Notes: generated from the sequence alone by a model not told the origin. DNA of 64,000 nt from a virus (IMGVR_UViG_3300020172_003394:1-64000); one strand, 5' to 3'; counted from the stretch's first letter, positions 9,724-37,401 are shown. Translations and numbers: made by a program.

Positions 9724-9726
9724 CCT

Positions 9727-20203: not shown

Positions 20204-20555
20204 GGGCCCGCCTGGTTTCGACAGGATGTGGATGACTGAACTTTGTGTCCAGCTTGGTAAATCTGGTAAAACAGACCGAAAAATATTAACTGGCAACTAT
20301 AACAGTCCAGCCCTCGCCCTCGCTGCGTAAGCAGTAGAGCCGAAGGACCGAATATCTGACCCACATAAGGGTATTCGGAATCATTATGTGGTGTAGTGTT
20401 AGTGACGGTTCGTATCTAACACCAAACACTTCGATCCTATGTTCAATGTATGTTTGTTCCGTGTCACGCATTGAATGAAATCAAACAAGGAACTACACAC
20501 ATAAATGTTTAGTAGGAAGCAGTCTTGGACGAGGGTTCGACTCCCTCCGGGTCCA
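20204..20555 (+). ncRNA. ssrA: tmRNA; tag (A)GNYNSPALALAA* at 20292-20330
   Basis: GGGCCCG/CGGGTCC-A acceptor with G3:U wobble, TTCGAC near 5' end, T-arm gagggttcgactccctc, tag ending ALAA. Confidence 0.95.
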
Positions 20556-20584
20556 CTTAAATTGATGGTTGTGTTAATAATTTT

Positions 20585-24945: not shown

Positions 24946-25021
24946 GGTGATAGAAGCTTAACTAGCATAAGCACCGGCTTGTGGCGCCGGGGACAGCGGG
25001 GGCAGCACCCGTCTATCACCC
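24946..25021 (+). tRNA. atypical tRNA-His(GUG)
   Basis: ccggc-ttgtggc-gccgg arm, G-1; D loop lacks GG; T loop GGCAGCA. Confidence 0.75.
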
Positions 25022-25059
25022 TGTGGTAAATACGCGGGTTCAAGTCCCGTCATTCACCC
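25022..25059 (+). pseudogene. 3' half relic of a canonical tRNA-His
   Basis: gcgggttcaagtcccgtcattcaccc T-arm and acceptor with no 5' partner. Confidence 0.6.
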
Positions 25060-25115
25060 TAGTACGCCCCTATAGTTCAATTGAAAGCGCATGAATTTAA
25101 GAGTATTAATAAGTT

Positions 25116-26395: not shown

Positions 26396-26526
26396 GTTTC
26401 AGGGGGTGTGTTGGTATGAGAAAGTCTATGAATATTGAAAAGATTTTAAAATACATCAATCAACACCCCCTGAAAGCTGTGTGTATTTGTGAGAAAACTC
26501 AGACGGAAACCTCGGAAAGAGATACC
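26396..26526 (+). ncRNA. candidate structured RNA / inverted-repeat element
   Basis: tttcagggggtgt/acaccccctgaaa 13-bp inverted repeat followed by small hairpins, abutting tRNA-Thr. Confidence 0.35.
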
Positions 26527-26607
26527 GCTACCTTCGCATAGTGGGATTGCACTTTCTTGGTAAGAAAGAGCCGTAAGGCAGAGTGAGTTCGATTCTCACA
26601 GGTAGCT
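26527..26607 (+). tRNA. tRNA-Thr(GGU) with long variable arm
   Basis: gctacct/aggtagc; ctttc-ttggtaa-gaaag; V arm gcc-gtaa-ggc. Confidence 0.85.
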
Positions 26608-26614
26608 TTACACT

Positions 26615-26686
26615 GCCCTGATAGTGTAATGGAGAGCACGATTGTCTTCGGAACAATTAGTAAAAGTTCGAATCTTTTTCGGGGCA
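26615..26686 (+). tRNA. tRNA-Arg(UCG)
   Basis: attgt-cttcgga-acaat. Confidence 0.88.
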
Positions 26687-26691
26687 CTTAT

Positions 26692-26765
26692 ACCCTCGTA
26701 GCTCAGCTGGATAGAGCATCAGACTTCTAATCTGAGGGTCAGAGGTTCGAATCCTCTCGGGGGTG
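26692..26765 (+). tRNA. tRNA-Arg(UCU)
   Basis: tcaga-cttctaa-tctga. Confidence 0.95.
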
Positions 26766-26769
26766 TTTT

Positions 26770-26856
26770 GGTGCGGTGGTAGAGAGGTTGAATGCACGGG
26801 ATTGCAAATCCTGCTAGTGGAAACACTACACGCCGGTTCGAATCCGGCCCGCACCT
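26770..26856 (+). tRNA. tRNA-Cys(GCA) with long variable arm
   Basis: ggtgcgg/ccgcacc-U; cggga-ttgcaaa-tcctg; V arm tagtg-gaaa-cacta. Confidence 0.87.
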
Positions 26857-26872
26857 CTAACAAGGAGAAAAT

Positions 26873-27478
26873 ATGTCGTTTCGGATAACAACACGAGTAC
26901 ATAGTGTAAAAAAAGATATACTACCATTTGCATACGTGGATGATATTTTTACTCCAGAAGAGTTGCAACGGGTCGTTGATTACTGTGATAATTTACAATT
27001 GATAGATGCTACGATTGGGCAAGGAAAATTAGCACCACAATATAGAAAATCAAAAGTTAATCAATTTAAGGTGAATAAAGAAAACGAGTGGATATTTGAA
27101 AGGTTGCAAATAGCCACCGAATATATGAATAATGAGTTTTTTAGATTTGATTTAATTGGGTTCGACCAAATACAGTATACTGAGTATAGAGATGACAACA
27201 ACCTATATGATTTTCACGTAGACTGCTATATGGGACACGATGTTCCATTAGATCATTCATATCCAAGAAAGCTTTCATTCAGCTTAATACTTTCTGACAA
27301 TACCGAATACACGGGTGGTAAATTTGAAGTGATGTACTCCAAAGTACCGGAAGAAGTAACACAAAAAAAAGGCAGACTTCTAGCATTTCCGTCTCATATG
27401 TTGCATAGAGTTACACCTGTAATAAAAGGAACTAGAAAATCTCTTGTGTTTTGGGTGATAGGACCAAAGTTCAAATAG
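26873..27478 (+). CDS. 2OG-Fe(II) oxygenase (PKHD/P4H-like)
   Basis: FHVD, RKLSFS, YTGG, FPS..LHRVTPV.KGTRKSLVFW. Confidence 0.9.
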   Translation: MSFRITTRVHSVKKDILPFAYVDDIFTPEELQRVVDYCDNLQLIDATIGQGKLAPQYRKSKVNQFKVNKENEWIFERLQIATEYMNNEFFRFDLIGFDQIQYTEYRDDNNLYDFHVDCYMGHDVPLDHSYPRKLSFSLILSDNTEYTGGKFEVMYSKVPEEVTQKKGRLLAFPSHMLHRVTPVIKGTRKSLVFWVIGPKFK

Positions 27479-27696
27479 GAATACTATATGAAAAAAATAA
27501 ATATTGAAGTTATCAAAAATATAATATCGATTATAATCGCATATGGTGCACTAATTATTGTAGCCGCGGTATTACTTTTTACTGCAATAAATAAAACAAC
27601 TAACGACAGCAAAGAACATGACAGTAAAACGCAAGTAGAAAATACGGTGTTGGAAAGTGGTAACATTGAGAATGCTATAAAAACCAATCAATACTG

Positions 27697-27978
27697 ATGA
27701 AAAAAATTTTATTTACAAAACCAATTACACTATCCGAAACTGCAGAACACAGAGTCCATACACGTAAGTGGTGGGCAATTCTTATCTTGATTATTGGTGG
27801 TCTTTTATTGGCAGGACGAGCACCAGTTCCGATGTCGTTAAGTTATACTCTTTTGTTCTTTGGCCACGCAGGAATGTTGCATAGTTTTTGGGAAAAACGG
27901 GATTACCCTATGGTTATCGTCAATCTTGTTTGGCTTGGTGTTGATGCCTTGGGGTTCATACGATGGTGGAATATGTAG
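27697..27978 (+). CDS. small multi-TM membrane protein
   Basis: three hydrophobic segments. Confidence 0.65.
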   Translation: MKKILFTKPITLSETAEHRVHTRKWWAILILIIGGLLLAGRAPVPMSLSYTLLFFGHAGMLHSFWEKRDYPMVIVNLVWLGVDALGFIRWWNM

Positions 27979-28160
27979 TCAAATCTCCATGCATAAAAGT
28001 ATGTAAATTACATAAAAATTCATGCATAGGGTGTCATAGGACTGTAGAAGAAATCAAAAAATGGAATAAATATTCAAACTTGACAAAAGTTTGGGTATGG
28101 GTTAAATTATATATAAGACGATATGACCAGAACTTGTGGAACCTGTACAAAATGTTGTGA
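27963..28160 (+). CDS. DUF1289-like Cys-rich protein
   Basis: SPCIKVC......CIGCHRT.EEI..W. Confidence 0.8.
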   Translation: MVEYVVKSPCIKVCKLHKNSCIGCHRTVEEIKKWNKYSNLTKVWVWVKLYIRRYDQNLWNLYKML

Positions 28161-28542
28161 TGGGTGGTTATCTGTTGAAGTATACGGTAATAAAGTAAAT
28201 GTTGGCAATCCGTGTATCTTCAAAAAAGAAAGTTGTGGATGCTCTATATATCAAGACAGACCTATCACATGTAAAGAATTTTTGTGTGGGTGGATCAGAG
28301 ATGATGGTACGCTGTTTGAAGAATGGATGAAACCAGATGTAGTTAATTTTATTCTAGTGTACTATAAAGTAGAAGAACTTAATTGGTATAAATTAGTTCA
28401 AGCAGGTGAAGATATAAACACGTTGATGTTAAGTTACGTTATACAAAAAGCACTTCGACAAAATATTAATTTGGAATACTGGATCGGTAATACACAATTT
28501 TTAATTGGGTCGGAAGAGTTTAAAAAATACGTAAAGCATTAG
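28123..28542 (+). CDS. YkgJ-like CxxCxxCC metal-cluster protein
   Basis: CGTCTKCC...C.....GCSIYQDRP..C..F.C. Confidence 0.8.
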   Translation: MTRTCGTCTKCCDGWLSVEVYGNKVNVGNPCIFKKESCGCSIYQDRPITCKEFLCGWIRDDGTLFEEWMKPDVVNFILVYYKVEELNWYKLVQAGEDINTLMLSYVIQKALRQNINLEYWIGNTQFLIGSEEFKKYVKH

Positions 28543-28544
28543 TC

Positions 28545-28618
28545 GGCAGGGTAGCTCAGTTGGTGAGAGCGCACGACTCATAATCGTGAGGTCGAGGGTT
28601 CGAATCCCTCCCCCGCTA
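28545..28618 (+). tRNA. tRNA-Met(CAU), elongator type
   Basis: cacga-ctcataa-tcgtg; no 3xGC initiator stem. Confidence 0.88.
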
Positions 28619-28622
28619 TCAA

Positions 28623-28704
28623 GGGAGTGTTGCAGAGCGGCCAAATGCAGTTGACTGTAAATCAACCGTCTTAGACTTCGGTGGTTCGAATCCACCCGCT
28701 CCCA
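28623..28704 (+). tRNA. tRNA-Tyr(GUA)
   Basis: gttga-ctgtaaa-tcaac, V arm. Confidence 0.95.
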
Positions 28705-28707
28705 TAT

Positions 28708-28781
28708 AGGCGCGTAGCTCAGGTGGTTAGAGCACTGACCTGATAAGTCAGGGGTCGCTGGTTCAACTCCAGCCGTGCCTA
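28708..28781 (+). tRNA. tRNA-Ile(GAU)
   Basis: ctgac-ctgataa-gtcag. Confidence 0.95.
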
Positions 28782-28786
28782 TTTTA

Positions 28787-28858
28787 GCCCCGATAGCTCA
28801 ATGGTAGAGCATGTGACTCTTAATCACCAGGTTGTAGGTTCGAGTCCTACTCGGGGCA
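28787..28858 (+). tRNA. tRNA-Lys(CUU)
   Basis: gtga-ctcttaa-tcac. Confidence 0.93.
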
Positions 28859-28861
28859 TAC

Positions 28862-28934
28862 GCCAAGATAGCTCAGTTGGTAGAGCAGCGGACTGAAGCT
28901 CCGCGTGTCGGGGGTTCGACTCCCTCTCTTGGCA
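28862..28934 (+). tRNA. tRNA-Phe(GAA) with G37
   Basis: gcgga-ctgaagc-tccgc. Confidence 0.93.
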
Positions 28935-28940
28935 CTAAGG

Positions 28941-29312
28941 TTAAAGTGGTAATTCAGTAAGATTATTCTCTCGGTCTAAATACTTCATTTCGACCTTAAC
29001 AGGATTAAATTCCTGAATGGCATTTACCACAAGTTGTGGGTCAAGTGTACCGCAGGTATATACATCAAGTTGTAATAAACCAGGTGAGACTTCATCCCAC
29101 ACGTGAAGTGCGATGTGACTTGTTTCGATGATGGCAACAGCAGTAAGACCACGATTACCAGCGACATCAAGATAGTTCGCAAATGGTCCCATCATAACTT
29201 TCATACCAATGGAAGAAATAAGTGTTTCCATCCAATGTATTGTAGTTTGTTTGTCTGTTGGTGGATTGGTGACTTCGGCACGAACGATAAGATGTTTATG
29301 AACGAGTGGCAT
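28941..29312 (-). CDS. speD: S-adenosylmethionine decarboxylase proenzyme
   Basis: HKHLI, GLTAVAIIETSHIALHVW, LDVYTCG (pyruvoyl-forming Ser site). Confidence 0.88.
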   Translation of the reverse strand: MPLVHKHLIVRAEVTNPPTDKQTTIHWMETLISSIGMKVMMGPFANYLDVAGNRGLTAVAIIETSHIALHVWDEVSPGLLQLDVYTCGTLDPQLVVNAIQEFNPVKVEMKYLDRENNLTELPL

Positions 29313-29429
29313 ATTACATATCCTTTGTTATAATGTTGTTAGTAAATATATAAGTATTAACGGTATATAAGGAAAATTATAATGAAAGCAGCAGTTATTA
29401 CATTTTTAATAATAGCTATTAGTATAAGC

Positions 29430-29458
29430 TTGACAACCGCGTGGATAGCTATTATATT
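29430..29458 (+). promoter_or_regulatory. sigma70-type promoter TTGACA-17-TATATT
   Basis: consensus match upstream of tRNA-Trp. Confidence 0.75.
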
Positions 29459-29475
29459 AGAAAGGGACGAGTTTT

Positions 29476-29547
29476 AGGTCCATAGTGTAATTGGCAACAC
29501 AACAGTCTCCAAAACTGTTTTTCAAGGTTCGAGTCCTTGTGGGCCTG
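29476..29547 (+). tRNA. tRNA-Trp(CCA)
   Basis: acagt-ctccaaa-actgt. Confidence 0.93.
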
Positions 29548-29553
29548 TTTCAT

Positions 29554-29627
29554 TCCCAGGTAGCTCAGTTGGTAGTAGCAGCGCACTGTTAATGCGCGGG
29601 TCGGGGGTTCAAGTCCCTCCCTGGGAG
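29554..29627 (+). tRNA. tRNA-Asn(GUU)
   Basis: gcgca-ctgttaa-tgcgc. Confidence 0.94.
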
Positions 29628-29661
29628 CTTGTCGTATTTATTTTTCACAAACGAGGTTATT

Positions 29662-29919
29662 ATGAATTTGACACCGAATGATAAGTTGAAGTTGGAAGCA
29701 GCACTGAAGGATATGGCTACGTCTATGACACGGGTAGCAGCAGAACGCGACCTACAGAAGAATGTGATTGGAGACATCTGTGAAGAACTCCAACTCAATA
29801 AGAAGGTGTTCCGTAAGTTGGCACGTGTGTATTACAAGCAAAACTTTGATGACGAAGTTGCAACGCATCAAGAGTTTGAAACCCTTTACGAGACTGTAAC
29901 GCAAACTACTAAGCCCTAA
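29662..29919 (+). CDS. T4 DsbA-like dsDNA-binding protein
   Basis: SMTRV.AERDL.K....ICEE..L.KKVFRKLARVYYKQNF......FETLYE pattern. Confidence 0.75.
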   Translation: MNLTPNDKLKLEAALKDMATSMTRVAAERDLQKNVIGDICEELQLNKKVFRKLARVYYKQNFDDEVATHQEFETLYETVTQTTKP

Positions 29920-29929
29920 GAGGTGACGT

Positions 29930-30373
29930 ATGAATCGGTTATGGATGTTGTTGTTCGTTTTCGGATGTACGGCACCAACCGAACCGCAGGTTACAAACTA
30001 TCAATTAAATTTTGTAAAAGATGTAGATACAATTTTTGTTGATACCACGGCAATACAAATCACAAAGCATATTGGAGCGGTCACTAATATTCACGGCAGA
30101 CGAATGGTATTGATAACAGGAAATATTTACATCCAAGCAACTCCTGGATTTGGACATGTAGATACTCTACCTACGGTTAATCCAATATCGTATACCAACA
30201 ACGGGTATGTAGGCACTGTATTTGGTGCCTTTCCAAGTATGGTAGGAATGACTGCAACCATTATTGCAAAAGTTGTAGATGATATACGAACACCTGAAGA
30301 ATATAGGTATCCGCAACTTCGGCAAGTATTGGCAGTGGATACGATGAAGATGGTTATTCTCCCACGCAAATAG
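29930..30373 (+). CDS. putative lipoprotein
   Basis: lipobox VFGC followed by TAPTEP. Confidence 0.7.
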   Translation: MNRLWMLLFVFGCTAPTEPQVTNYQLNFVKDVDTIFVDTTAIQITKHIGAVTNIHGRRMVLITGNIYIQATPGFGHVDTLPTVNPISYTNNGYVGTVFGAFPSMVGMTATIIAKVVDDIRTPEEYRYPQLRQVLAVDTMKMVILPRK

Positions 30374-30378
30374 TAGTT

Positions 30379-30452
30379 GGGGTGGTAGCTCAATTGGTTA
30401 GAGCACTGCACTGTCACTGCAGAGGTTGCGGGTTCGATTCCCGTCCATCCCG
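30379..30452 (+). tRNA. tRNA-Asp(GUC)
   Basis: ctgca-ctgtcac-tgcag. Confidence 0.94.
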
Positions 30453-30476
30453 TTTTACACCACCAAGGAGTATTTT

Positions 30477-30671
30477 ATGAAACGTGTGTATTTGAGTAAT
30501 ACTGAAAACAAAATTGCTGGAGTATGTGGTGGATTTGCAGAATCATTAGGAATTGACCCCACACTCATCAGATTACTTTTTGTTGCAGCGTTTTTTTCAC
30601 CACTTCCTGCAGTAATTTTTTATCTGCTGTGTTGGATAGTTATTCCACGAAATCCTGGATATAAGTCATAA
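30477..30671 (+). CDS. pspC: PspC-domain membrane protein
   Basis: KIAGVCGGFAESLGIDPTLIRLLFV...YLLCWIVIP. Confidence 0.9.
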   Translation: MKRVYLSNTENKIAGVCGGFAESLGIDPTLIRLLFVAAFFSPLPAVIFYLLCWIVIPRNPGYKS

Positions 30672-31795
30672 TGAAATTATTATTGTTATCAACGTGTGGC
30701 AGAACAAAAGAAGCAGAAGATGTAAGTTACATTAATTTATATCTTGCGTCTCTGAAAAAGCATGTTGTTCCTCATTACAATGTTAAAGTTATTTTGTTCA
30801 ACAATGCATTAAATCAAAATTCTAATGAAAGTTTGACTTGGCAAAGAGTTCAAGAGTTTGGATTAGAAAATATTGTTGAAGTAAAAAACATGTATGAAAT
30901 GGGACTACCGCAAAAATCGTTAGAGTTTCTTGATAATATGCACTGGTTTTCCAAGATTGGAATAAATATGAATATGTTATTTGATTATTCAAGAAACCAT
31001 AATTTCTTTGATGCAGATTGGGTTTTTCACTTTGACACGGATTTAGAATTTTTACCAAACTTTCAATCGGTGTTTTCTAAAATTCATCCTATGGTGGAAG
31101 TAAATCCAGAAGTTATGATAACTGCGGCGGGTGACACATACCCATACAACATACGTTATCAGGACACAGAATTTATTTTTGATGAACCTGAACGGGTATA
31201 CATGTACGACGAATCAACAGTTCATCACAATTTTACTTTACGGCAATTGACAGTAAACCGTAGAGACGCCGACGCAACAGATGCAACTAGATATTCTGGT
31301 AGTGAAAAGTTATTTTTTAACTTACAACAACAAAAAATAAGAAATGATTTTGTTGGATACTCCAGACAAGCGGCAAATCAACATACGTTCAACTGGATTT
31401 CGTGCCACTATCCAAACAATTATGAAGCAATTGGTAAATTAAAAGATAACGAAGATGCACATTTGTTGAAAAAATTGTGGGATGAAAAAACTAGTCCTAA
31501 TTTTGAATTGTTTGTGAATCACGATAAAGGGTCACTACCACAATTCTTTTTACAAGGGTCGTCACATAATGTCGTAAAGGTACAACTTCGTGGTTATTTG
31601 GATATGGCAAGACATTATAGTTCTGGTTGGTATGCCGAAACACCGTTTGGGGCATACGCACAACAACGACTAAAAGAAGATTACACCGATACCCAGCATA
31701 TTTGGGAAAAGGATTATTTGACAAGAGAAGAAATTGAATCTAGAATTTCTAATTTACAAAATGAAATTCAAAGATTACAAAATATGTTAAATTAG
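30671..31795 (+). CDS. putative glycosyltransferase (GT-A-like)
   Basis: HFDTDLEF DxD motif; neighbourhood of glycan genes. Confidence 0.5.
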   Translation: MKLLLLSTCGRTKEAEDVSYINLYLASLKKHVVPHYNVKVILFNNALNQNSNESLTWQRVQEFGLENIVEVKNMYEMGLPQKSLEFLDNMHWFSKIGINMNMLFDYSRNHNFFDADWVFHFDTDLEFLPNFQSVFSKIHPMVEVNPEVMITAAGDTYPYNIRYQDTEFIFDEPERVYMYDESTVHHNFTLRQLTVNRRDADATDATRYSGSEKLFFNLQQQKIRNDFVGYSRQAANQHTFNWISCHYPNNYEAIGKLKDNEDAHLLKKLWDEKTSPNFELFVNHDKGSLPQFFLQGSSHNVVKVQLRGYLDMARHYSSGWYAETPFGAYAQQRLKEDYTDTQHIWEKDYLTREEIESRISNLQNEIQRLQNMLN

Positions 31796-31801
31796 TAGTT
31801 G

Positions 31802-31886
31802 GGACAGTTGGCTGAGTGGTCTAAAGCAGGAGATTACTAATCTCTCGTACTGAAAGGTACCGTGGGTTCGAATCCTACACTGTCCG
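31802..31886 (+). tRNA. tRNA-Ser(ACU)
   Basis: ggacagt/actgtcc-G; ggaga-ttactaa-tctct; long V arm gtac-tgaaag-gtac. Confidence 0.9.
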
Positions 31887-31902
31887 TTTAATGGAGATTG
31901 TT

Positions 31903-32013
31903 ATGGCAACACATAAAAGAAAAGGACATACTAGAAAGCCAAGAAAATCTTGGCAAGCTAGTATAAAAGTAAAATCAACAACTGTTAAAAATCCGCGCAA
32001 AAAACGTAAATAA
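31903..32013 (+). CDS. 36-aa basic peptide MATHKRKGHTRKPRKSWQASIKVKSTTVKNPRKKRK
   Basis: manual translation; GGAG SD. Confidence 0.6.
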   Translation: MATHKRKGHTRKPRKSWQASIKVKSTTVKNPRKKRK

Positions 32014-32036
32014 TTAGTATTTATTTAGGAGAGGGC

Positions 32037-32065
32037 TTGACAATCGGCAGTCCACTAGTTATATT
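32037..32065 (+). promoter_or_regulatory. sigma70-type promoter TTGACA-17-TATATT
   Basis: consensus match upstream of tRNA-Lys. Confidence 0.78.
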
Positions 32066-32082
32066 ACTGGTGTAGGGTAAAC

Positions 32083-32156
32083 GCCTCCATAACTCAATTG
32101 GTCAGAGTAGCTGGCTTTTAACCAGTAAGTTCTAGGTTCGAGTCCTAGTGGGGGCA
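32083..32156 (+). tRNA. tRNA-Lys(UUU)
   Basis: gctgg-cttttaa-ccagt. Confidence 0.93.
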
Positions 32157-32175
32157 CTGTTGATTAACAATAGAA

Positions 32176-32350
32176 GGTCAGTTGTAGAGCTTACCCGTGG
32201 TAGGAGAATCCCCACGCTACACGATTCATCCAAGCGACCCTTACGTGAAGTATCACTACAACGATACAGGGGAAGTATCCGTAAGTAGTAGTCCTCGTGT
32301 TTAGACAAACGTTCGGTGAGGATGGCACCAACGATAATAGGTAAGTTCTT
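32176..32350 (+). ncRNA. candidate multi-stem ncRNA between tRNA-Lys and tRNA-Leu
   Basis: closing agagcttacc/ggtaagttct; internal cgtgg/ccacg, ttacg/cgtaa, gatac/gtatc, tcctc/gagga; no ORF in track. Confidence 0.6.
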
Positions 32351-32387
32351 CTCTATAAAATGAGAGGATACAATAAGTCATCCATAC

Positions 32388-32470
32388 GCCCTGGTGGTGG
32401 AATGGCATACACAGAGCACTTAAAATGCTCCGGTCTTACGACCTTGCGAGTTCGAGTCTCGCCCTGGGCA
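32388..32470 (+). tRNA. tRNA-Leu(UAA)
   Basis: gagca-cttaaaa-tgctc, V arm. Confidence 0.93.
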
Positions 32471-32752
32471 TCAGCAGGAGAACAATATGATTAAGTATTT
32501 GGTAAAAATATATTTTGTAGGTGGGGTCACATCGTTTATATATTACGCAGCAGAAGCAACCGAGGCTATTACACAGTTTCGTAATGACCCGGATGCACAA
32601 AAGTTGTTAGAAGGAAAAGTATTGACACATTATGAGGTAGGACCTGTATGAGTAATATAATTTTAGGTGGTATCTGTATATTGTTTGTATTACTCAGTAT
32701 ATGGTTTTCTCTTGTAGTACATCATCGTTGGGGACGTAAGAAATAAATTGTT

Positions 32753-32824
32753 GCGGGTGTAGCTCAGTGGTAGAGTCCGTGCTTGCCAAGCACGTTGTCG
32801 TGGGTTCGAATCCCATCGCCCGCT
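32753..32824 (+). tRNA. tRNA-Gly(GCC)
   Basis: cgtgc-ttgccaa-gcacg. Confidence 0.94.
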
Positions 32825-32836
32825 CTTGGAGAATTT

Positions 32837-33412
32837 ATGTTTGATATGTTTAATAGAGTAATCTCACAACGAGGTTACACAAGATACTTGGAAATCGGTG
32901 TTAGTAATGGTGGAACATTCTATAATATAGAATGTCAAGTAAAGCATGGTGTGGATCCTAACAACAAGGATATACTTTACCCCATTACCTCCGATGAGTT
33001 TTTTGAAAACTGTAATCAAACATATGATTTAGTTTTTATTGATGGTGACCACGAGTGTAATCAAGTGTTACGAGATATTAATAATAGCATCCAACACTTG
33101 TCACCAAATGGTATCATTTTTATTCACGATACAAAACCGCACACCGAATTGATGCAACGGTCACCAATGCCACCTTCGGAAAAATTGTGTGAACGTGGGT
33201 TGTGGACTGGTGATGTGTGGAAAGCTATCGCAAAATTTAGAAGTACAAGAACAGATTTTACAGTTAGAACATTTAATATAGAACTTGGTTTAACTATACT
33301 AGAAAGAGGTGAGGAGACGCTGATAGAAATACCAGAAGAACTCACTTACGAGTGGTACTTGACAAACCAAGATTACGTGTTAAATTTAATTCCGTACAAT
33401 ACGGGCCTGTAG
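32837..33412 (+). CDS. class I SAM-dependent methyltransferase (Methyltransf_24-like)
   Basis: YLEIGV, GVDP, TSDEFF, DLVFIDGDH, HD, WTGDVWK. Confidence 0.88.
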   Translation: MFDMFNRVISQRGYTRYLEIGVSNGGTFYNIECQVKHGVDPNNKDILYPITSDEFFENCNQTYDLVFIDGDHECNQVLRDINNSIQHLSPNGIIFIHDTKPHTELMQRSPMPPSEKLCERGLWTGDVWKAIAKFRSTRTDFTVRTFNIELGLTILERGEETLIEIPEELTYEWYLTNQDYVLNLIPYNTGL

Positions 33413-33475
33413 CTCAGCTGGGAGAGCGCCTGATTTGCATTCAGGAGGTCATCGGTTCGATCCCGTTCAGGTCCA
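33403..33475 (+). tRNA. tRNA-Ala(UGC)
   Basis: cctga-tttgcat-tcagg; G3:U70. Confidence 0.95.
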
Positions 33476-33478
33476 TTT

Positions 33479-33563
33479 TAGTCGGTCATTGAGGGTGTAG
33501 TCACTCAGTCCTATGTCAGAGAAATCTGTTATGTCTGAACCTACAAGCGACCTGAGCCGACTA
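33479..33563 (+). ncRNA. candidate small structured RNA between tRNA-Ala and tRNA-Val
   Basis: tagtcggtca/tgagccgacta closing stem; tgtag/ctaca; caga-gaaa-tctg GNRA hairpin. Confidence 0.55.
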
Positions 33564-33566
33564 TCT

Positions 33567-33640
33567 GGGTGGTTAGCTCAGCTGGTTAGAGCATCGCTTT
33601 TACACAGCGAGGGTCGGGGGTTCGAGTCCCTCACTACCCA
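33567..33640 (+). tRNA. tRNA-Val(UAC)
   Basis: tcgct-tttacac-agcga. Confidence 0.94.
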
Positions 33641-33659
33641 TTCACCATAAGGAGGTTAT

Positions 33660-33866
33660 ATGAGACAACGTGTTATTGAAATGTTACGGTCACAAGCAGA
33701 AGCAGAACGTCAGAAGGCATTACTTTCACTTGACCTTTTGATGGAACGTTCGGTTGGTATTGGTGACCATTCCACAGGTGATTTTTATAAGAACGCTGAA
33801 GAAGCATTACAGATGCTTGTTGACGCTGACGATAAGATTGAAGCATTAAACAAGTATTTTAATTAA
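33660..33866 (+). CDS. conserved phage hypothetical protein
   Basis: AAGGAGGT SD; SVGIGDHST motif. Confidence 0.75.
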   Translation: MRQRVIEMLRSQAEAERQKALLSLDLLMERSVGIGDHSTGDFYKNAEEALQMLVDADDKIEALNKYFN

Positions 33867-33873
33867 GTTTGTC

Positions 33874-33945
33874 GCGGGTGTCGTATAACGGCTATTACCC
33901 CAGCCTTCCAAGCTGGTGACGAGGGTTCGACTCCCTCTACCCGCT
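33874..33945 (+). tRNA. tRNA-Gly(UCC)
   Basis: ccagc-cttccaa-gctgg. Confidence 0.94.
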
Positions 33946-33949
33946 CTTT

Positions 33950-34033
33950 GCTCTTGTGACGGAACCGGCAGACGTAGCGGACTCAAAATCCGCCGCCCTC
34001 AAAGGCGTGTGGGTTCGACTCCCACCGAGAGCA
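33950..34033 (+). tRNA. tRNA-Leu(CAA)
   Basis: gcgga-ctcaaaa-tccgc, V arm. Confidence 0.93.
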
Positions 34034-34036
34034 TAA

Positions 34037-34109
34037 CGGGGAGTAGCTCAGTTGGTAGAGTGCACGCTTTGGGAGCGTGATGTCGCAGGTTCGAGTCCTG
34101 TCTCCCCGA
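34037..34109 (+). tRNA. tRNA-Pro(UGG)
   Basis: cacgc-tttggga-gcgtg. Confidence 0.94.
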
Positions 34110-34127
34110 CTCAATAGGAGAATAGTT

Positions 34128-34451
34128 ATGGAAAAAATTATAGAAGAATATTTTGATGCTTTTGTTAACAAAGATTTGCAAAAGTTATCGTCGCTGTATG
34201 ATGACAATATTGTGTTGTCTGAATGGGATGAAAACATCTTTACTGGAAAGGAAGCTGTTTTAAAAGCGAATGAAGAACTATTTAATAAGTTCAAGGATAT
34301 TGGTGTTGTGGTGAAAGCACGTGCATCACAAAATAATCGTTCGTTGAATGAAATAGTGGTACACCTAGACGATGTTGAAGTCAAGGTAGTTGATAGCATT
34401 ACTGTGGTAGATGGAAAAATTATCGGTATAATGGCATATCGTGGATTCTAA
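34128..34451 (+). CDS. SnoaL/NTF2-like protein
   Basis: YFDAF..KDL..L..LY, GKEAV, DGKI..I.AYRG. Confidence 0.8.
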   Translation: MEKIIEEYFDAFVNKDLQKLSSLYDDNIVLSEWDENIFTGKEAVLKANEELFNKFKDIGVVVKARASQNNRSLNEIVVHLDDVEVKVVDSITVVDGKIIGIMAYRGF

Positions 34452-34509
34452 TATTAAACGATATTTATATTGTAATACGGTTCTGTAAATTTACACTAGA
34501 GAAAAATAT

Positions 34510-35196
34510 ATGAAATACGCAGTATTTTCAACTTATAGAACAGCCAGTACTTTATTGCATGATATGGTACGAAACCATTTCGACCTTACGGGTTTAGGAG
34601 AGTTAACAGGGCAATCACCGTTAGATATACGATTAGATGATGCGTTACGTCATCAATATATCAACGAAAAAATTGCAGAAGATAACTACGTTGTAAAATT
34701 ATTTTCGTCTGATTTTACACCAAACAATTATTGGTTTAATAAAGAAACGTTTGACTGGTCAAGATTTGAAAAAATAATAATCAGTACACGAGCAAACGTA
34801 ACAAACCAATTAGCAAGTGTGTATTATATGAAAGTTTATAATACAGGAGAACAAGAACTATTTCCGATAAATACAACTCCTGAAGCTATAGATTTTTCAA
34901 ATGAACATTGGATGAAAATTATGGAGTTTATGAGAAAATCATTACTACGACTTCATAGTATCAAAGATGAGTTATTAACGCAATATCCAACAAAGGTATC
35001 GGTGGTACCATCGGAAATTTTCCGTGATGAACCATCAGAGTTTTTACCAATAGTAAATTCATTAACTGGTATTAATTTTGTAGAAGCTAATTTAACACCA
35101 ACAAATTCGTTTGTTACAGGACTAAACTACTCCGAAAAATATACTAATTATAATGATTTAAAAGCAATAGTAGATTCGTGGGGAATTCCAAATTAG
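34510..35196 (+). CDS. sulfotransferase-like P-loop protein
   Basis: STYRTASTLL N-terminal motif; R...QLAS. Confidence 0.55.
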   Translation: MKYAVFSTYRTASTLLHDMVRNHFDLTGLGELTGQSPLDIRLDDALRHQYINEKIAEDNYVVKLFSSDFTPNNYWFNKETFDWSRFEKIIISTRANVTNQLASVYYMKVYNTGEQELFPINTTPEAIDFSNEHWMKIMEFMRKSLLRLHSIKDELLTQYPTKVSVVPSEIFRDEPSEFLPIVNSLTGINFVEANLTPTNSFVTGLNYSEKYTNYNDLKAIVDSWGIPN

Positions 35197-35199
35197 GGC

Positions 35200-35228
35200 T
35201 TGACATTTGAGTAGAAGTTAGGTATATT
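35200..35228 (+). promoter_or_regulatory. sigma70-type promoter TTGACA-17-TATATT
   Basis: consensus match; predicted start coincides with ncRNA 5' stem. Confidence 0.8.
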
Positions 35229-35231
35229 ACT

Positions 35232-35344
35232 TGTGTGGTCAGCAAGAGAGCGGTAACGACTAACAGGTTTCACAGCGATACTCGATATCGCAGACGAGTT
35301 ATAAGTGCACTTAGGAACTCGTCGGCTGAGTTGGTGACCACACA
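35232..35344 (+). ncRNA. candidate structured ncRNA preceding tRNA-Glu
   Basis: perfect 10-bp tgtgtggtca/tgaccacaca; gcgata/tatcgc; gacgagtt/aactcgtc. Confidence 0.65.
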
Positions 35345-35348
35345 TTAC

Positions 35349-35420
35349 GCCGCTTTCGTCTATCGGTTAGGACATAGCCCTTTCAAGGCTAGAAGGCGGG
35401 TTCGATTCCCGCAAGCGGTA
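35349..35420 (+). tRNA. tRNA-Glu(UUC)
   Basis: tagcc-ctttcaa-ggcta. Confidence 0.92.
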
Positions 35421-35436
35421 CTACAACAAAAAATAT

Positions 35437-35510
35437 CCGCCAGTGGCCAAATGGTGAAGGCAGCGGTCTTATATACCGAAGATGTGTAGGTTCAAGTCCT
35501 ACCTGGCGGA
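35437..35510 (+). tRNA. tRNA-Ile(UAU)
   Basis: ccgccag/ctggcgg-A; cggt-cttatat-accg. Confidence 0.85.
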
Positions 35511-35533
35511 CTTGGTTATTGTGGTGGGTAGTA

Positions 35534-35607
35534 GGGCCGTTAGCTCAGTCGGTTAGAGCACGCGACTCATAATCGTGCGGTCCTGGGTTCAAGTCCCAGA
35601 CGGCCCA
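35534..35607 (+). tRNA. tRNA-Ile2(CAU, lysidine type)
   Basis: GGGCC acceptor typical of Ile2; cgcga-ctcataa-tcgtg. Confidence 0.85.
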
Positions 35608-35630
35608 TTTTAAATTAGGAGATACCGTAA

Positions 35631-35723
35631 ATGCCACATCCAAAAAAGTGCGGAAAGGGTCGTCGTAAGATTGGCTCGAAGAAACGCAACAATCGTTGGA
35701 AAAATAGAAAGCGTAAGCATTAA
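35631..35723 (+). CDS. 30-aa basic peptide MPHPKKCGKGRRKIGSKKRNNRWKNRKRKH, bS22/mS38-like
   Basis: manual translation; AGGAG SD; size and K/R pattern. Confidence 0.65.
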   Translation: MPHPKKCGKGRRKIGSKKRNNRWKNRKRKH

Positions 35724-35730
35724 TATCTAT

Positions 35731-35945
35731 CCGAGGCCTTTACCCTACCTTTCACCTCGTTAACAGCCTTCGGGCGAATGGAAAGTCTTTAAAATGATAG
35801 GGCGGGGCTGGAGTCGTTATGACCAGACACGTTTGACTAGTTTGGTGTATGGATAAACTAGTAGGCGGTTGGGGAAACTTGACGGAGTTGTGTGTCCGCC
35901 TAAATACTTGTAATAAGTGAGTTGATATCTCACAACACATCCCCC
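35731..35945 (+). ncRNA. candidate ~215-nt multi-hairpin ncRNA preceding tRNA-Gln
   Basis: gcc-ttcg-ggc, ctttc/gaaag, cccta/taggg, actagttt/aaactagt, taggcgg/ccgccta; GC-rich, no plus-strand ORF. Confidence 0.6.
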
Positions 35946-35947
35946 AT

Positions 35948-36018
35948 TGCCCCTTCGTCTAACGGCAAGACGCTAGGCTTTGGACCTAGCTATCGTGGTT
36001 CGAATCCACGGGGGGCAA
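35948..36018 (+). tRNA. tRNA-Gln(UUG)
   Basis: ctagg-ctttgga-cctag. Confidence 0.93.
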
Positions 36019-36062
36019 TTGTAGTAAATGGTTATTTAATTTTAATTTAATGGAGTATTATA

Positions 36063-36239
36063 ATGTACAAGTTCATTCTTGCAGTAGCAGTAGTTGCGTT
36101 GGCCGCATGTGGTTCGGTAAAGACCGAAGAAGCTTCAACAACGGATAGTACCGCAGTTGCTGCACCAGTATTAGACACCGTAGTAGTTGCGGATTCAACC
36201 GTAGTCACCGCACCAGTTGACGGTCCTGCTCAAAAGTAA
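36063..36239 (+). CDS. 58-aa lipoprotein (MYKFILAVAVVALAAC...)
   Basis: manual translation; lipobox LAAC; GGAG SD. Confidence 0.75.
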   Translation: MYKFILAVAVVALAACGSVKTEEASTTDSTAVAAPVLDTVVVADSTVVTAPVDGPAQK

Positions 36240-36251
36240 TCAATAGTATTT

Positions 36252-36322
36252 GCGGTTCTAGTGTAATAGATAGCACGGTAGGCGTCCAGTCTACAAGTCC
36301 GGTGCAACTCCGTGGAACCGCT
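36252..36322 (+). tRNA. atypical tRNA-Gly(UCC)
   Basis: gcggttc/gaaccgc-U; gtagg-cgtccag-tctac (G33); GUGC T loop; no D-loop GG. Confidence 0.7.
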
Positions 36323-36329
36323 CTAATTT

Positions 36330-36416
36330 GTAAGAACAATCTCATGCGAGGTGTGGCGCACTCGTTGTGGTGGCGGGAAGAGTAGTATTAACTACTTGAA
36401 AGGGATTTGTTCTTAC
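36330..36416 (+). ncRNA. candidate three-way-junction RNA between atypical tRNA-Gly and tRNA-Ser
   Basis: perfect gtaagaacaa/ttgttcttac; cgag..gtg/cac..ctcg arm; agtagt-atta-actact. Confidence 0.6.
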
Positions 36417-36427
36417 TTTTACTTTCT

Positions 36428-36512
36428 GGACAGGTGGCAGAGTGGTCTATTGCAACGGTCTTGAAAACCGTCGAGCTGAGAGGCTCCGAGAGTTCGAATC
36501 CCTCCCTGTCCG
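36428..36512 (+). tRNA. tRNA-Ser(UGA)
   Basis: acggt-cttgaaa-accgt, V arm. Confidence 0.93.
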
Positions 36513-36527
36513 CTTAACGAGGTTATT

Positions 36528-36728
36528 ATGATACACGAATTCAAAACACCGTTTGATGTAAAAACCCCGCATGGAGATGGCCGAGCAATCTTATTGATTG
36601 ATTATGGTATTGATGTAAATACTGTTTGGGTCGTTAAACTTGACGGTGGAATCGTGAAGCATTACTATTCGGATGATATTCGTATTTACGACAACCCTAT
36701 GAATGGTAAGGGTTGGAACGTAGAATAA
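36528..36728 (+). CDS. conserved phage hypothetical protein
   Basis: GAGGT SD; TPHGDG.A..LIDYG...NTVWVV. Confidence 0.7.
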   Translation: MIHEFKTPFDVKTPHGDGRAILLIDYGIDVNTVWVVKLDGGIVKHYYSDDIRIYDNPMNGKGWNVE

Positions 36729-36737
36729 TAAATATCT

Positions 36738-36809
36738 GCCACAATAGCTCAGCGGTAGAGCACTCGATTTGTAATCGAGCGGTCGTCGGTTCAATCCCGA
36801 CTTGTGGCT
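36738..36809 (+). tRNA. tRNA-Thr(UGU)
   Basis: ctcga-tttgtaa-tcgag. Confidence 0.95.
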
Positions 36810-36921
36810 CTTAAATAAAACCAAACATACTTGATATTTATATAGGACTCGCACCGCAGTGGTGGAGTCCTTTTTACCGTGACGCTCAATAGTGAGGTCA
36901 CATAACATAGGAGGTCATTTT

Positions 36922-37401
36922 ATGACTCATTTAGTATTTCGCCCATTCGGGTCAACGGTTTTGAACAATCGGGATAACTTCATCAGCACATTTGATAAGA
37001 TGTTTGATGAATTTGCCAGAAAAGATTTCCCTGAGTTTTTCCAACACTTCGGGGCAGAGCCTTTTGGAAAGGCAGCATATCCAAAGGTTAATGTAATTAC
37101 AAATGACGAGGCTGTAGTTATTGAAGCAGAACTCGCTGGTTACAAGAAGGATGAAATTGATATTGAGGTCAAGGAAGGGGTCTTGACCATTTCGGGTGGT
37201 ACATCACAATTGAACGAGCAAACTGATAAAGTAGTTTATCTTCTACGAGAATTGAAGCGAAGCTCATTCTCTCGATCCTTTAAGCTCGGTGACCAATTGG
37301 ATGCATCAGAAGTAAATGCAAAGTTTGATAATGGGTTACTTACAATCACAATCCAAAAATTGCAAAAGGAGCCAGAGTCGAAAAAGGTTACGATTAAGTA
37401 A
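36922..37401 (+). CDS. small heat shock protein Hsp20
   Basis: YPKVNV, ELAG..K.EI.I, LTISG, F.RSF.L, A.FDNGLLTI. Confidence 0.93.
   Translation: MTHLVFRPFGSTVLNNRDNFISTFDKMFDEFARKDFPEFFQHFGAEPFGKAAYPKVNVITNDEAVVIEAELAGYKKDEIDIEVKEGVLTISGGTSQLNEQTDKVVYLLRELKRSSFSRSFKLGDQLDASEVNAKFDNGLLTITIQKLQKEPESKKVTIK

Follow-up and report, generated by a model that had tools for sequence, protein, structure and literature searches.

The stretch analysed here, hereafter the window, is 64,000 nt of viral DNA (IMGVR_UViG_3300020172_003394:1-64000) carrying a tRNA array in which six segments are directly flanked by tRNA genes, as located with ARAGORN and Rfam. The phage also encodes a T4 DsbA-like gene and gp6-like baseplate proteins. 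The features of the tract discussed below are:

26396-26526, + strand: segment 1, a near-perfect long hairpin (26397-26475) plus 50 nt
32037-32065, + strand: sigma-70-type promoter (TTGACA, 17 nt, TATATT; 11 of 12 consensus matches), before tRNA-Lys, RNA A and tRNA-Leu
32158-32387, + strand: RNA A (segment 2), about 225 nt, multi-helix, between tRNA-Lys(UUU) and tRNA-Leu(UAA)
33476-33565, + strand: segment 3, a 90-nt hairpin spacer between tRNA-Ala and tRNA-Val
35200-35228, + strand: sigma-70-type promoter (TTGACA, 17 nt, TATATT; 11 of 12 matches), before segment 4 and the tRNA-Glu/tRNA-Ile/tRNA-Met group
35232-35348, + strand: segment 4, a 112-nt hairpin-rich 5' leader with a 10-bp closing stem
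35724-35946, + strand: RNA B (segment 5), 223 nt, between the pepB micro-ORF and tRNA-Gln
36253-36323, + strand: atypical second tRNA-Gly(UCC)-like gene with a cloverleaf fold, directly upstream of RNA C
36326-36427, + strand: RNA C (segment 6; core 36330-36416), followed by a U-rich tail and then tRNA-Ser(UGA)
36844-36875, + strand: intrinsic terminator closing the tRNA array after tRNA-Thr(UGU), a GC-rich hairpin followed by a T run (inner stem called computationally, the rest read by eye from the sequence)

The first-pass annotation had described six mutually different, GC-richer segments lying flush against tRNA genes, most of them closed by a terminal stem and none with a tRNA cloverleaf or the hallmarks of RNase P RNA, SRP RNA, tmRNA or hammerhead ribozymes. 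Their positions and tRNA-flush placement were confirmed for all six, each on the tRNA strand (ARAGORN, Rfam). The compositional claim holds for segments 2-6, with 46-50% GC versus 39% for the whole window and 31-39% for most CDS, and fails for segment 1 (38.9%). Closing stems are real in segments 1, 2, 3, 4 and 6, whereas the two ends of segment 5 do not pair with each other, its 3' tail probably pairing with an internal loop instead. As had been stated, no segment is related to another; each is single-copy in the 86-kb record. A search of the region with Rfam 15 (4,227 models) returned no match in any of the six at the gathering score or at E ≤ 5, and segments 2, 5 and 6, each queried alone at E ≤ 10, gave just 10-18-bit noise or nothing, so that even with lax filters no Rfam family was matched; none of the six was called as a tRNA (RF00005) by ARAGORN or Rfam. 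Compared with dinucleotide-shuffled sequences, folding was better than chance only for segments 1 (MFE -40.6 kcal/mol, z -5.2), 4 (-45.5 kcal/mol, z -5.2) and 6 (z -2.9), the remaining values being -1.6 for segment 3, -1.0 for segment 2 and +1.3 for segment 5. Since these scores are unremarkable for segments 2 and 5, the support for both is comparative rather than thermodynamic.

In comparison with related phage loci, RNAs A, B and C are conserved at the level of tRNAs and above that of CDS, with identities of 85-87%, 80-89% and 93-97%, respectively, versus 65-75% in the long neighbouring CDS. For RNA A, the first of these ranges covers 11 distinct sequences, two further ones showing 76% identity; at locus L019 it is 85% identical although the adjacent protein is just 39% identical. 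In total, 18 distinct homologues were recovered, falling into two subfamilies (types 1 and 2), the latter keeping the fold at about 60-70% identity. The RNA A fold comprises a closing helix (32186-32195 with 32340-32349), an invariant internal loop CAGGGGAAG (32267-32275) and two pseudoknots: PK1, which pairs 32181-32187 with the hairpin loop 32256-32262, and PK2, which pairs the P5 loop (32320-32325) with the 3' tail (32378-32383). The type-1 alignment contains 56 pairs, 98% paired and 11 compensatory, and when four type-2 homologues are included 24 of the 49 nested pairs are compensatory with 96.9% of cells paired, the pair counts being somewhat inflated for the A11 alignment, which was fitted to the model's structure. 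This joint covariation was matched in 0 of 500 shuffles, a count that, like the one given for RNA B, cannot serve as a probability because it rests on alignments of only 8-18 mutually related sequences; slid controls were 34-45% paired with 0-5 compensatory pairs. Both pseudoknots change in concert on their two sides, PK1 occurring in three complementary versions (GUUGUAG/CUACAAC, GUUGCGG/CCGUAAC and GUUAUGG/CCAUAAC) and PK2 as GGAUGG/CCAUCC, GGAUGA/UUAUCC and GGAUGA/UCAUCU. In the RNA A and RNA B alignments, indels of 1 and 4 nt break the frame; together with the G-U pairs, such indels identify RNA A as a non-coding RNA of the + strand.

The two subfamilies of RNA A differ in their surroundings. 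In type 2, a TTGACA-17-TATATT promoter lies directly upstream with no tRNA before the RNA, and the 3' end is a GC-rich hairpin followed by a U run that overlaps the PK2 tail; this last hairpin with its U6 is terminator-like by eye and was not called, its loop having 9 nt versus the 3-8 nt of the criterion. With a promoter of its own and a 3' hairpin resembling a terminator in the second subfamily, RNA A is read as an independent gene. The type-1 RNA of the window has no U run. In both subfamilies tRNA-Leu(UAA) stands just 3' of RNA A, the PK2 tail lying 5-10 nt from its RNase P site, with the single exception of locus L074, where RNA A is present with no tRNA-Leu after it. At L074 an HNH endonuclease gene adjoins RNA A.

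RNA B is represented by 13 distinct sequences and consists of a nearly invariant 5' domain (35724-35805; also delimited as 88 nt) and four covarying hairpins. Its alignment contains 46 pairs, 98.5% paired and 11 compensatory (11-12 of 46-50 overall), matched in 0 of 500 shuffles, to be read with the reservation made above, and with slid controls 39-48% paired. A hairpin loop is the probable partner of the 3' tail (35936-35945), which would make a pseudoknot; this GGGG/CCCC pairing shows one compensatory change, in L058. The tail abuts tRNA-Gln, which is always found 3' of RNA B. The covariance model R3 matches RNA B in this clade only, and in L038-type phages an unrelated sequence stands in its place.

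RNA C folds into a cloverleaf-shaped four-way junction, in which a 14-bp closing stem encloses three hairpins. Despite this shape it was rejected as a tRNA, since its closing stem has 14 bp, versus the 7 bp of a tRNA acceptor stem, and neither a T loop nor an anticodon loop is present. The identity given above applies to most carriers, the most distant one, L038, having 79%; of the 29 aligned pairs (97% paired) five are compensatory, most of them due to L038, and G-U pairs are conserved. Model R1 detects RNA C in 10 sources (nine loci and the window) and finds none in L004, L054, L056, L057 and L060, so that it is dispensable in several relatives. The tRNA-Gly-like gene immediately upstream (36253-36323) was missing from the first-pass annotation. 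ARAGORN calls a tRNA-Gly(tcc) at the equivalent place in L009, L012 and L038, not in the window, where the copy has G for U33; its acceptor and anticodon stems covary.

The remaining three segments are lineage-specific. Segment 1 lies between an inserted Big_2 gene, the domains of which were confirmed, and tRNA-Thr(GGU); no homologue was found, and the hairpin together with the Big_2 gene is absent in all relatives compared. It is probably the 3' hairpin of the inserted gene, of terminator or RNase III-site type. Intrinsic terminators, taken as a GC-rich hairpin with a 3-8-nt loop and a U run right behind it, were called in none of segments 1, 4 and 6, and segment 1 lacks a U run. Segment 3 was found in four contigs only, with 92-98% identity in L010 and L011; in L012 the closing stem is retained while the sequence it encloses differs. 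The flanking tRNA-Ala and tRNA-Val abut in L003-L006, and in L002 a small ORF occupies the slot. It is thus best described, from its distribution, as a patchy hairpin spacer. The 5' end of segment 4 roughly coincides with the predicted transcription start, and 4 nt separate its 3' end from tRNA-Glu. The closest relative lacks the segment, BLAST found no homologue in related loci, and a 17-mer scan of IMG/VR gave chance matches only. The upstream promoter is kept in L001, there about 40 nt from tRNA-Glu, and a relative's contig from a lake RNA library lacks the segment, joining the equivalents of 35205 and 35349. Segment 4 therefore looks like a contig-specific insertion into a tRNA leader. When judged by conservation and covariation in related phages outside any Rfam family, as the first-pass annotation had proposed, segments 2, 5 and 6 (RNAs A, B and C) stand, and segments 1, 3 and 4 fall outside any apparent conserved set. 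Its central idea of unexplained structured RNAs within a tRNA array is accordingly real for three conserved, covarying elements; the coherent set of six is not, as segments 1 and 4 have no homologues, segment 3 is patchy and segment 6 is missing in several relatives.

Several known systems offer points of comparison. The parallel with the stable RNAs of T4, drawn at first pass, is apt because the T4 annotation places two of them, rnaC (species 1) and rnaD (species 2), directly behind tRNA-Arg; like these small structured RNAs, the RNAs of the window lie in a T4-type tRNA cluster, abutting and co-oriented with tRNAs. However, models R1, R2 and R3 had no match in the T4 locus (L073), and the RNAs of the window resemble rnaC and rnaD neither in sequence nor in fold; rnaC has a tRNA-like T arm that RNAs A, B and C lack, and RNAs A and B have about 225 nt versus 119-139 nt, RNA A and probably RNA B being pseudoknotted. 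GOLLD and ROOL RNAs often adjoin tRNA genes. They are phage- or prophage-associated RNAs of complex fold (PMC12286853). With about 600-800 nt and multimeric assemblies they differ from RNAs A, B and C (100-225 nt), and their Rfam models had no match to the segments. HDV-like theta ribozymes are pseudoknotted RNAs located immediately beside phage tRNA genes and linked to tRNA maturation. The RNAs described here are two to three times larger than self-cleaving ribozymes beside phage tRNAs, and no match was obtained with the Rfam HDV-like, hammerhead, twister, pistol or hatchet models. The Y RNA YrlA, a non-coding RNA closed by a stem and bearing a tRNA-like module, is at times phage-encoded near tRNAs; its model gave sub-threshold scores on true tRNAs only and none in the segments, and the TROVE (Ro) protein PF05731 is absent from the 86-kb record G000, which, being only about 48% complete, leaves its absence from the phage unproven. 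An RNase P RNA was also considered: no Rfam RNase P match was found, nor was the CR-I to CR-V core (GAGGAAAGUCC, P4 pseudoknot), and the GGAAAGUC-like string of RNA B varies in relatives (GGAAAGAC, GGAAAGUA). Finally, 8,495 covarying RNA motifs, some of them tRNA-like, have been predicted in uncultivated phage contigs of IMG/VR (Fremin et al. 2023; PMC10690425). That collection is also the source of the homologues described here; A, B and C have no curated Rfam family, and it is by Rfam that they are set apart from known RNAs.

Taken against Rfam, RNAs A, B and C are very probably genuine, conserved and structured, and belong to no known family; they appear confined to a clade of uncultured freshwater T4-like phages. 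We somewhat favour an overall reading in which the three are transcribed with the tRNAs, excised by processing, and persist as stable, trans-acting RNAs comparable in location and origin to T4 rnaC and rnaD, with segments 1, 3 and 4 set apart; one component, action in trans after excision, is put forward more tentatively. This reading is weakened by the dispensability of RNA C in several relatives and the replacement of RNA B in L038-type phages.

The strongest competitor, though in our judgement unlikely, gives RNAs A, B and C a role in cis only, as structured leaders or spacers within the tRNA operons that do nothing after excision. They would hold the RNase P site of the following tRNA (Leu-UAA, Gln or Ser-UGA) in position or hide it, insulate neighbouring tRNAs from misfolding or block exonucleases. 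Each of the three ends at, or no more than 11 nt from, a tRNA 5' end, the PK2-forming tail of RNA A lying 5-10 nt before tRNA-Leu and the RNA B tail abutting tRNA-Gln, and as RNA A precedes tRNA-Leu(UAA) in both subfamilies, L074 excepted, and RNA B precedes tRNA-Gln, a cis role in tRNA maturation fits this arrangement equally well. However, a length of some 225 nt, two pseudoknots and internal loops that do not vary go far beyond the needs of a spacer, most tRNAs of the array are spaced by only 2-7 nt without any such element, type-2 RNA A comes with a promoter of its own and a terminator-like end, RNA A persists in L074 without tRNA-Leu, and some relatives manage without RNA C.

That at least one of the three is a new ribozyme, for instance self-cleaving to free adjacent tRNAs, is suggested by their size, pseudoknots, tRNA-adjacent position and invariant unpaired blocks (the internal loop of RNA A and the 88-nt 5' domain of RNA B). 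We consider this improbable, as even searches at E ≤ 10 matched no self-cleaving family of Rfam, none of the known catalytic core motifs was seen, and processing is already accounted for by the RNase P and tRNA 3'-end enzymes of the host. Marginally less probable still are ligand- or tRNA-sensing riboswitches or attenuators controlling read-through into the downstream tRNA or genes: the terminator-like hairpin and U run of type-2 RNA A, overlapped by the PK2 tail just before tRNA-Leu, and the U-rich tract after the RNA C closing stem would suit them, whereas the window's type-1 RNA A has no U run, no covarying, mutually exclusive alternative pairing was seen, and no riboswitch family of Rfam was matched. 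Small protein-coding genes or the recent horizontal spread of selfish DNA are highly implausible sources of the conservation, for although both strands carry short ORFs that overlap the segments and the array is a mosaic, with swapped tRNA alleles and the endonuclease gene beside RNA A in L074, frame-breaking indels occur, substitutions concentrate in compensating pairs, the type-2 subfamily holds its fold at low identity, and no repeated copies exist in the genome.

Returning to stable, trans-acting RNAs, the near-consensus sigma-70-type promoters would transcribe RNAs A, B and C within tRNA precursor transcripts. A relative's 266-nt contig in a lake metatranscriptome (assembled contigs, one library) covers tRNA-Leu together with all but the 5' third of RNA A, a weak hint of expression, as the library may include carried-over DNA. 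From what RNase P and tRNA 3'-end enzymes do, release by tRNA processing can be proposed: RNase P, cutting where the downstream tRNA begins, would set the 3' ends of the RNAs, and 3' processing of the upstream tRNA (or pepB mRNA) their 5' ends. What is released would fold compactly and resist nucleases, the 3' tail of RNA A, and probably that of RNA B, being tucked into a pseudoknot that would protect the end. In these freshwater T4-like phages, RNAs A, B and C may thus act in trans as protein-binding scaffolds or decoys.

The 86-kb source record, of which the window represents the first 64 kb, was ~48% complete by CheckV. Judging from its encoded proteins, a gp6-like baseplate wedge protein and a T4 DsbA-like protein together with hsp20, AdoMet decarboxylase, a 2OG-Fe(II) oxygenase and PspC, the phage is a T4-type myovirus with cyanophage-style auxiliary genes; a search for cultured-phage relatives in INPHARED, in near and distant modes, returned matches to tRNAs only. 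ARAGORN predicted 29 tRNA genes and one tmRNA, all on the plus strand between 20.2 and 36.8 kb, and all calls except one were supported by Rfam, which also adds a weak tRNA-His. The array and its framing comprise the following features, in which RNAs A, B and C denote the second, fifth and sixth of six segments flagged between tRNA genes, and pepA and pepB are micro-ORFs:

20204-20556, plus strand: phage-encoded tmRNA (Rfam 141.6 bits; predicted tag peptide GNYNSPALALAA)
26873-27478: 2OG-Fe(II) oxygenase gene, interleaved with tRNAs
28941-29312, minus strand: AdoMet decarboxylase gene (PF02675), the sole minus-strand gene within the array
29430, 31718, 32037 and 35200: near-consensus promoters before tRNA genes (TTGACA, 17 nt, TATATT or TAGAAT)
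29629-29919: gene for the T4 DsbA-like protein, interleaved with tRNAs
30426-30671: PspC gene, interleaved with tRNAs
31903-32013: pepA (36 aa, very basic), upstream of the promoter/tRNA-Lys/RNA A unit
32158-32387, plus strand: RNA A (segment 2), ~225 nt, a double pseudoknot in the spacer from tRNA-Lys(UUU) to tRNA-Leu(UAA)
35631-35723: pepB (30 aa, very basic), directly upstream of RNA B
35724-35946, plus strand: RNA B (segment 5), its 3' tail directly before tRNA-Gln
36253-36323: atypical second tRNA-Gly(UCC)-like gene, directly upstream of RNA C
~36326-36427, plus strand: RNA C (segment 6), a 14-bp closing stem around three hairpins, then a U-rich tail
~36844-36875: intrinsic terminator ending the tRNA array
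36892-37401: hsp20 gene, interleaved with tRNAs

Several tRNA calls are unusual. The stretch 24947-25075 holds a weak tRNA-His(GUG) (Rfam 35 bits, aberrant T loop, no ARAGORN call), which is followed immediately by an apparent 3' half of another tRNA and is parted from tRNA-Leu(UAG) by a 135-nt insertion with a zinc-ribbon-like micro-ORF, the Leu and His genes abutting in relatives. The ARAGORN calls for tRNA-Thr(GGU) (81 nt, 26527-26607) and tRNA-Cys(GCA) (88 nt, 26770-26857) are unusually long and coexist with Thr and Cys tRNA genes of normal length, and a tRNA-Ser with anticodon ACU was called at 31802-31886.

The first-pass annotation had described six GC-richer, mutually different structured segments of no known family, flush against tRNA genes and mostly closed by a stem. 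All six lie where it had placed them, and closing stems were found in segments 1, 2, 3, 4 and 6; the higher GC content holds for segments 2-6 (46-50% versus 39% for the window) and fails for segment 1. Rfam, searched with segments 2, 5 and 6 also submitted singly at the laxest filters, gives no match in any of the six, and the segments are indeed unrelated to one another by comparison, each being single-copy, with no repeats or paralogues within the genome. Fold stability clearly exceeded that of dinucleotide shuffles in three segments only, namely 1 and 4 (both z = -5.2) and 6 (z = -2.9); segments 3, 2 and 5 scored -1.6, -1.0 and +1.3, respectively. The notion of a set of six did not survive intact, as conservation in related loci differs greatly between segments and sets 1, 3 and 4 apart: conserved covarying structure was found in related phages for RNAs A, B and C, and no homologues of segments 1 and 4 were found. 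These related loci (identified by L numbers) were retrieved from IMG/VR and metagenomes via proteins encoded beside the segments and short conserved DNA patterns, and are mostly freshwater, judged from record titles and a lake-water RNA run; additional IMG/VR matches to 15-17-base patterns lay in unrelated contexts, mostly coding.

RNA A was recovered in 13 further distinct sequences, with 76-87% identity across the whole tRNA-Lys(UUU)/tRNA-Leu(UAA) spacer and an invariant internal loop (CAGGGGAAG); the copy in L019 belongs to them, although the 374-aa protein encoded next to it has no more than 39% identity. Length differences of 1 and 4 nt among these homologues exclude a coding role for RNA A, and conserved G-U pairs assign it to the plus strand. 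The hand-refined structure of the 14 window-like (type-1) sequences contains 56 pairs, 98% paired and 11 compensatory, against 31-48% paired and 0-2 compensatory pairs in partner-slid controls. A gapped pattern uncovered a second subfamily (type 2; L007, L074, L075 and L076), to which the BLAST match is partial and the type-1 covariance model aligns end to end with 107-111 bits. With both types combined, compensatory change affects 24 of the 49 nested pairs, a count somewhat flattered by an alignment fitted to the model, and 96.9% of cells are paired; none of 500 shuffles reached the observed value, and slid controls gave 34-45% paired. Both pseudoknots are invariant within type 1 and covary once type 2 is added: the first joins the 5' strand to the inner hairpin loop (GUUGUAG/CUACAAC, GUUGCGG/CCGUAAC, GUUAUGG/CCAUAAC), and the second the P5 loop to the 3' tail (GGAUGG/CCAUCC, GGAUGA/UUAUCC, GGAUGA/UCAUCU). 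The hairpin loop displaced a 3' CUACAAC as the assigned partner of the 5' GUUGUAG, since in type-2 sequences it is the loop that covaries and the 3' copy is missing.

A dedicated TTGACA-17-TATATT promoter lies just 5' of type-2 RNA A, upstream of which there is no tRNA, and at the 3' end a U run comes after a GC-rich hairpin. The L074 copy is directly followed by an ORF for an HNH-motif endonuclease (226 aa, 1485-2165) in place of tRNA-Leu(UAA), an arrangement reminiscent of the homing endonuclease segB of the T4 tRNA cluster. By these arrangements, RNA A is an independent gene and more than a spacer. One contig of a relative in the lake RNA library spans part of RNA A and tRNA-Leu, which is weak evidence that does not show the ends; the library is a single RNA run holding 5% of the sampled words, its assembled contigs are uninformative on RNA ends, strand and level, and its uncovered parts carry no meaning. 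A gapped 20-base pattern run against 185,579 species for host-encoded or prophage copies of RNA A gave 42 matches, approximately the chance number, none of which BLAST extended.

RNA B is represented by 13 distinct sequences with 80-89% identity. Its 5' 88 nt are almost invariant and contain a C(UUCG)G hairpin as well as CCUUUC and GGAAAG strings, which are complementary and could pair but do not vary, and its 3' half consists of four heavily covarying hairpins. Overall, 46 pairs are 98.5% paired with 11 compensatory, compared with 39-48% and 0-3 in slid controls. Pairing is possible between the 3' tail and the large loop that the AGGCGG/CCGCCU hairpin encloses (through GGGG/CCCC and UGUGU/ACACA), the former backed by one compensatory change, in L058. 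An RNase P reading of RNA B was rejected, and so was a Y RNA reading. The RNA B covariance model (R3) matched in the window's clade only, with no divergent copy found in L038-type or type-2 phages; L038-type phages retain pepB, and the RNA B slot holds unrelated sequence with a folding z of only -1.2. Both pepA and pepB are conserved as ORFs in many relatives, with K/R exchanges; neither belongs to a Pfam family, and their Atlas look-alikes are unnamed.

RNA C forms a cloverleaf-shaped junction, as its 14-bp stem encloses three hairpins, and despite this shape no tRNA features were found in it. It is 93-97% identical in most relatives, a tRNA-level conservation; the sole divergent copy (L038, 79%) is the source of most of the five compensatory pairs, and several relatives without RNA C have a terminator and an ORF at its place. 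The tRNA-Gly(UCC)-like gene upstream has a D loop without GG, a T loop UGCAACU and a weak T stem; in the window U33 is replaced by G and ARAGORN makes no call, while in relatives U33 is kept, ARAGORN calls the gene and its stems covary. A canonical tRNA-Gly(UCC) lies at 33874-33946, and the atypical gene resembles non-proteinogenic tRNA-Gly species.

The remaining segments differ in nature. Segment 4 (35232-35348) has a very stable fold, its 5' end roughly coincides with where transcription from the 35200 promoter would start, and a 17-mer scan for homologues gave two chance matches and none genuine. The closest relative has a 35200-type promoter ~40 nt from tRNA-Glu without segment 4, and a relative's contig in the lake RNA library joins 35205 to 35349, skipping it; segment 4 is a contig-specific insertion in the tRNA leader. 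Its 50-aa minus-strand ORF, which overlaps the promoter and has no homologue, looks spurious. Segment 1 (26396-26526) follows a Big_2 gene of higher GC and forms an extended hairpin of almost perfect pairing that lacks a U run. The gene and this hairpin are jointly missing from all relatives; on the simplest reading the gene was acquired and the hairpin, of a stabilising or RNase III type, belongs to its 3' end. A 41-codon ORF from 26416, read by eye, has no homologues. Segment 3 (33476-33565) is present in L010 and L011, and L012 keeps the closing stem with another interior; elsewhere the two flanking tRNAs abut or a micro-ORF is present. On this thin evidence, segment 3 could represent a small folded spacer RNA.

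Across related loci the array is syntenic yet mosaic. Comparing window positions 31802-36810 with L009, L010, L012 and L038, tRNA-Ser(UGA) is identical in L009 and L012 (100%) and 84-85% identical in L010 and L011, and for tRNA-Lys(UUU) the identity is 100% in L009 and L038, against 71-78% in L012, L010 and L002; these mosaic alleles suggest that cassettes are often exchanged within the array. Slots between tRNAs seem to accept different cassettes, being occupied in related phages by folded RNAs, micro-ORFs or homing-endonuclease genes; a hairpin that looks stable is therefore not always a conserved RNA gene in such an array. In L038, of a more distant clade, the pepB-to-tRNA-Gln slot (minus strand, 7313-7490) holds an unrelated 178 nt with a T-arm-like GGUUCUAGUCC and a 3' end CCACCA, and the tRNA-Ala-to-tRNA-Val slot (minus strand, 9631-9727) an unrelated 97 nt.

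RNAs A, B and C have a conserved fold, strand, non-coding nature and transcriptional framing. From what is known of tRNA processing, they would be excised by RNase P, cutting where the downstream tRNA begins, together with 3' maturation of the upstream tRNA, and the tail pseudoknot of A, and probably that of B, would shield the new 3' end. We favour trans-acting stable RNAs, because RNA A occurs with its own promoter and without tRNA-Leu, is far more complex than a spacer requires, and most tRNAs of the array do without such a neighbour. The serious rival is a cis role in maturing tRNA-Leu(UAA), tRNA-Gln and tRNA-Ser(UGA), beside which the three RNAs are encoded in the window. We consider it improbable that A and B are new functional RNA classes, either ribozymes or RNA cores around which a small phage ribonucleoprotein is built, with the co-conserved arginine/lysine-rich pepA/pepB perhaps as partners; such a particle might target tRNAs of host or phage, or defence nucleases directed at tRNAs. 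Ribozyme and riboswitch readings find no positive support. RNAs A, B and C have their closest analogue, in position and presumed biogenesis, in T4 rnaC and rnaD, annotated stable RNAs directly 3' of tRNA-Arg in the T4 genome, although they are not homologous to them.

RNAs A, B and C are absent from Rfam families, cultured-phage sequences and bacterial and archaeal genomes in the scanned collections, and our search found no literature describing them; PMC10690425 lists thousands of unnamed IMG/VR motifs, which may include them. Structured RNAs of obscure role inside phage tRNA clusters are already known as a kind; new are the families A, B and C and the double-pseudoknot fold of RNA A. Phage tRNA arrays are currently studied as translation boosters and counter-measures against tRNA-cleaving host defences, and their non-tRNA RNAs have awaited a place in this picture since T4 species 1 and 2 were described some fifty years ago. 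One array here yields three new RNA families, each with a usable alignment, covariance model and secondary structure, one of them with two covariation-supported pseudoknots and existing as an independent gene in some phages, and all of them amenable to assays of ribozyme activity, of ligand and protein binding, and of tRNA processing.
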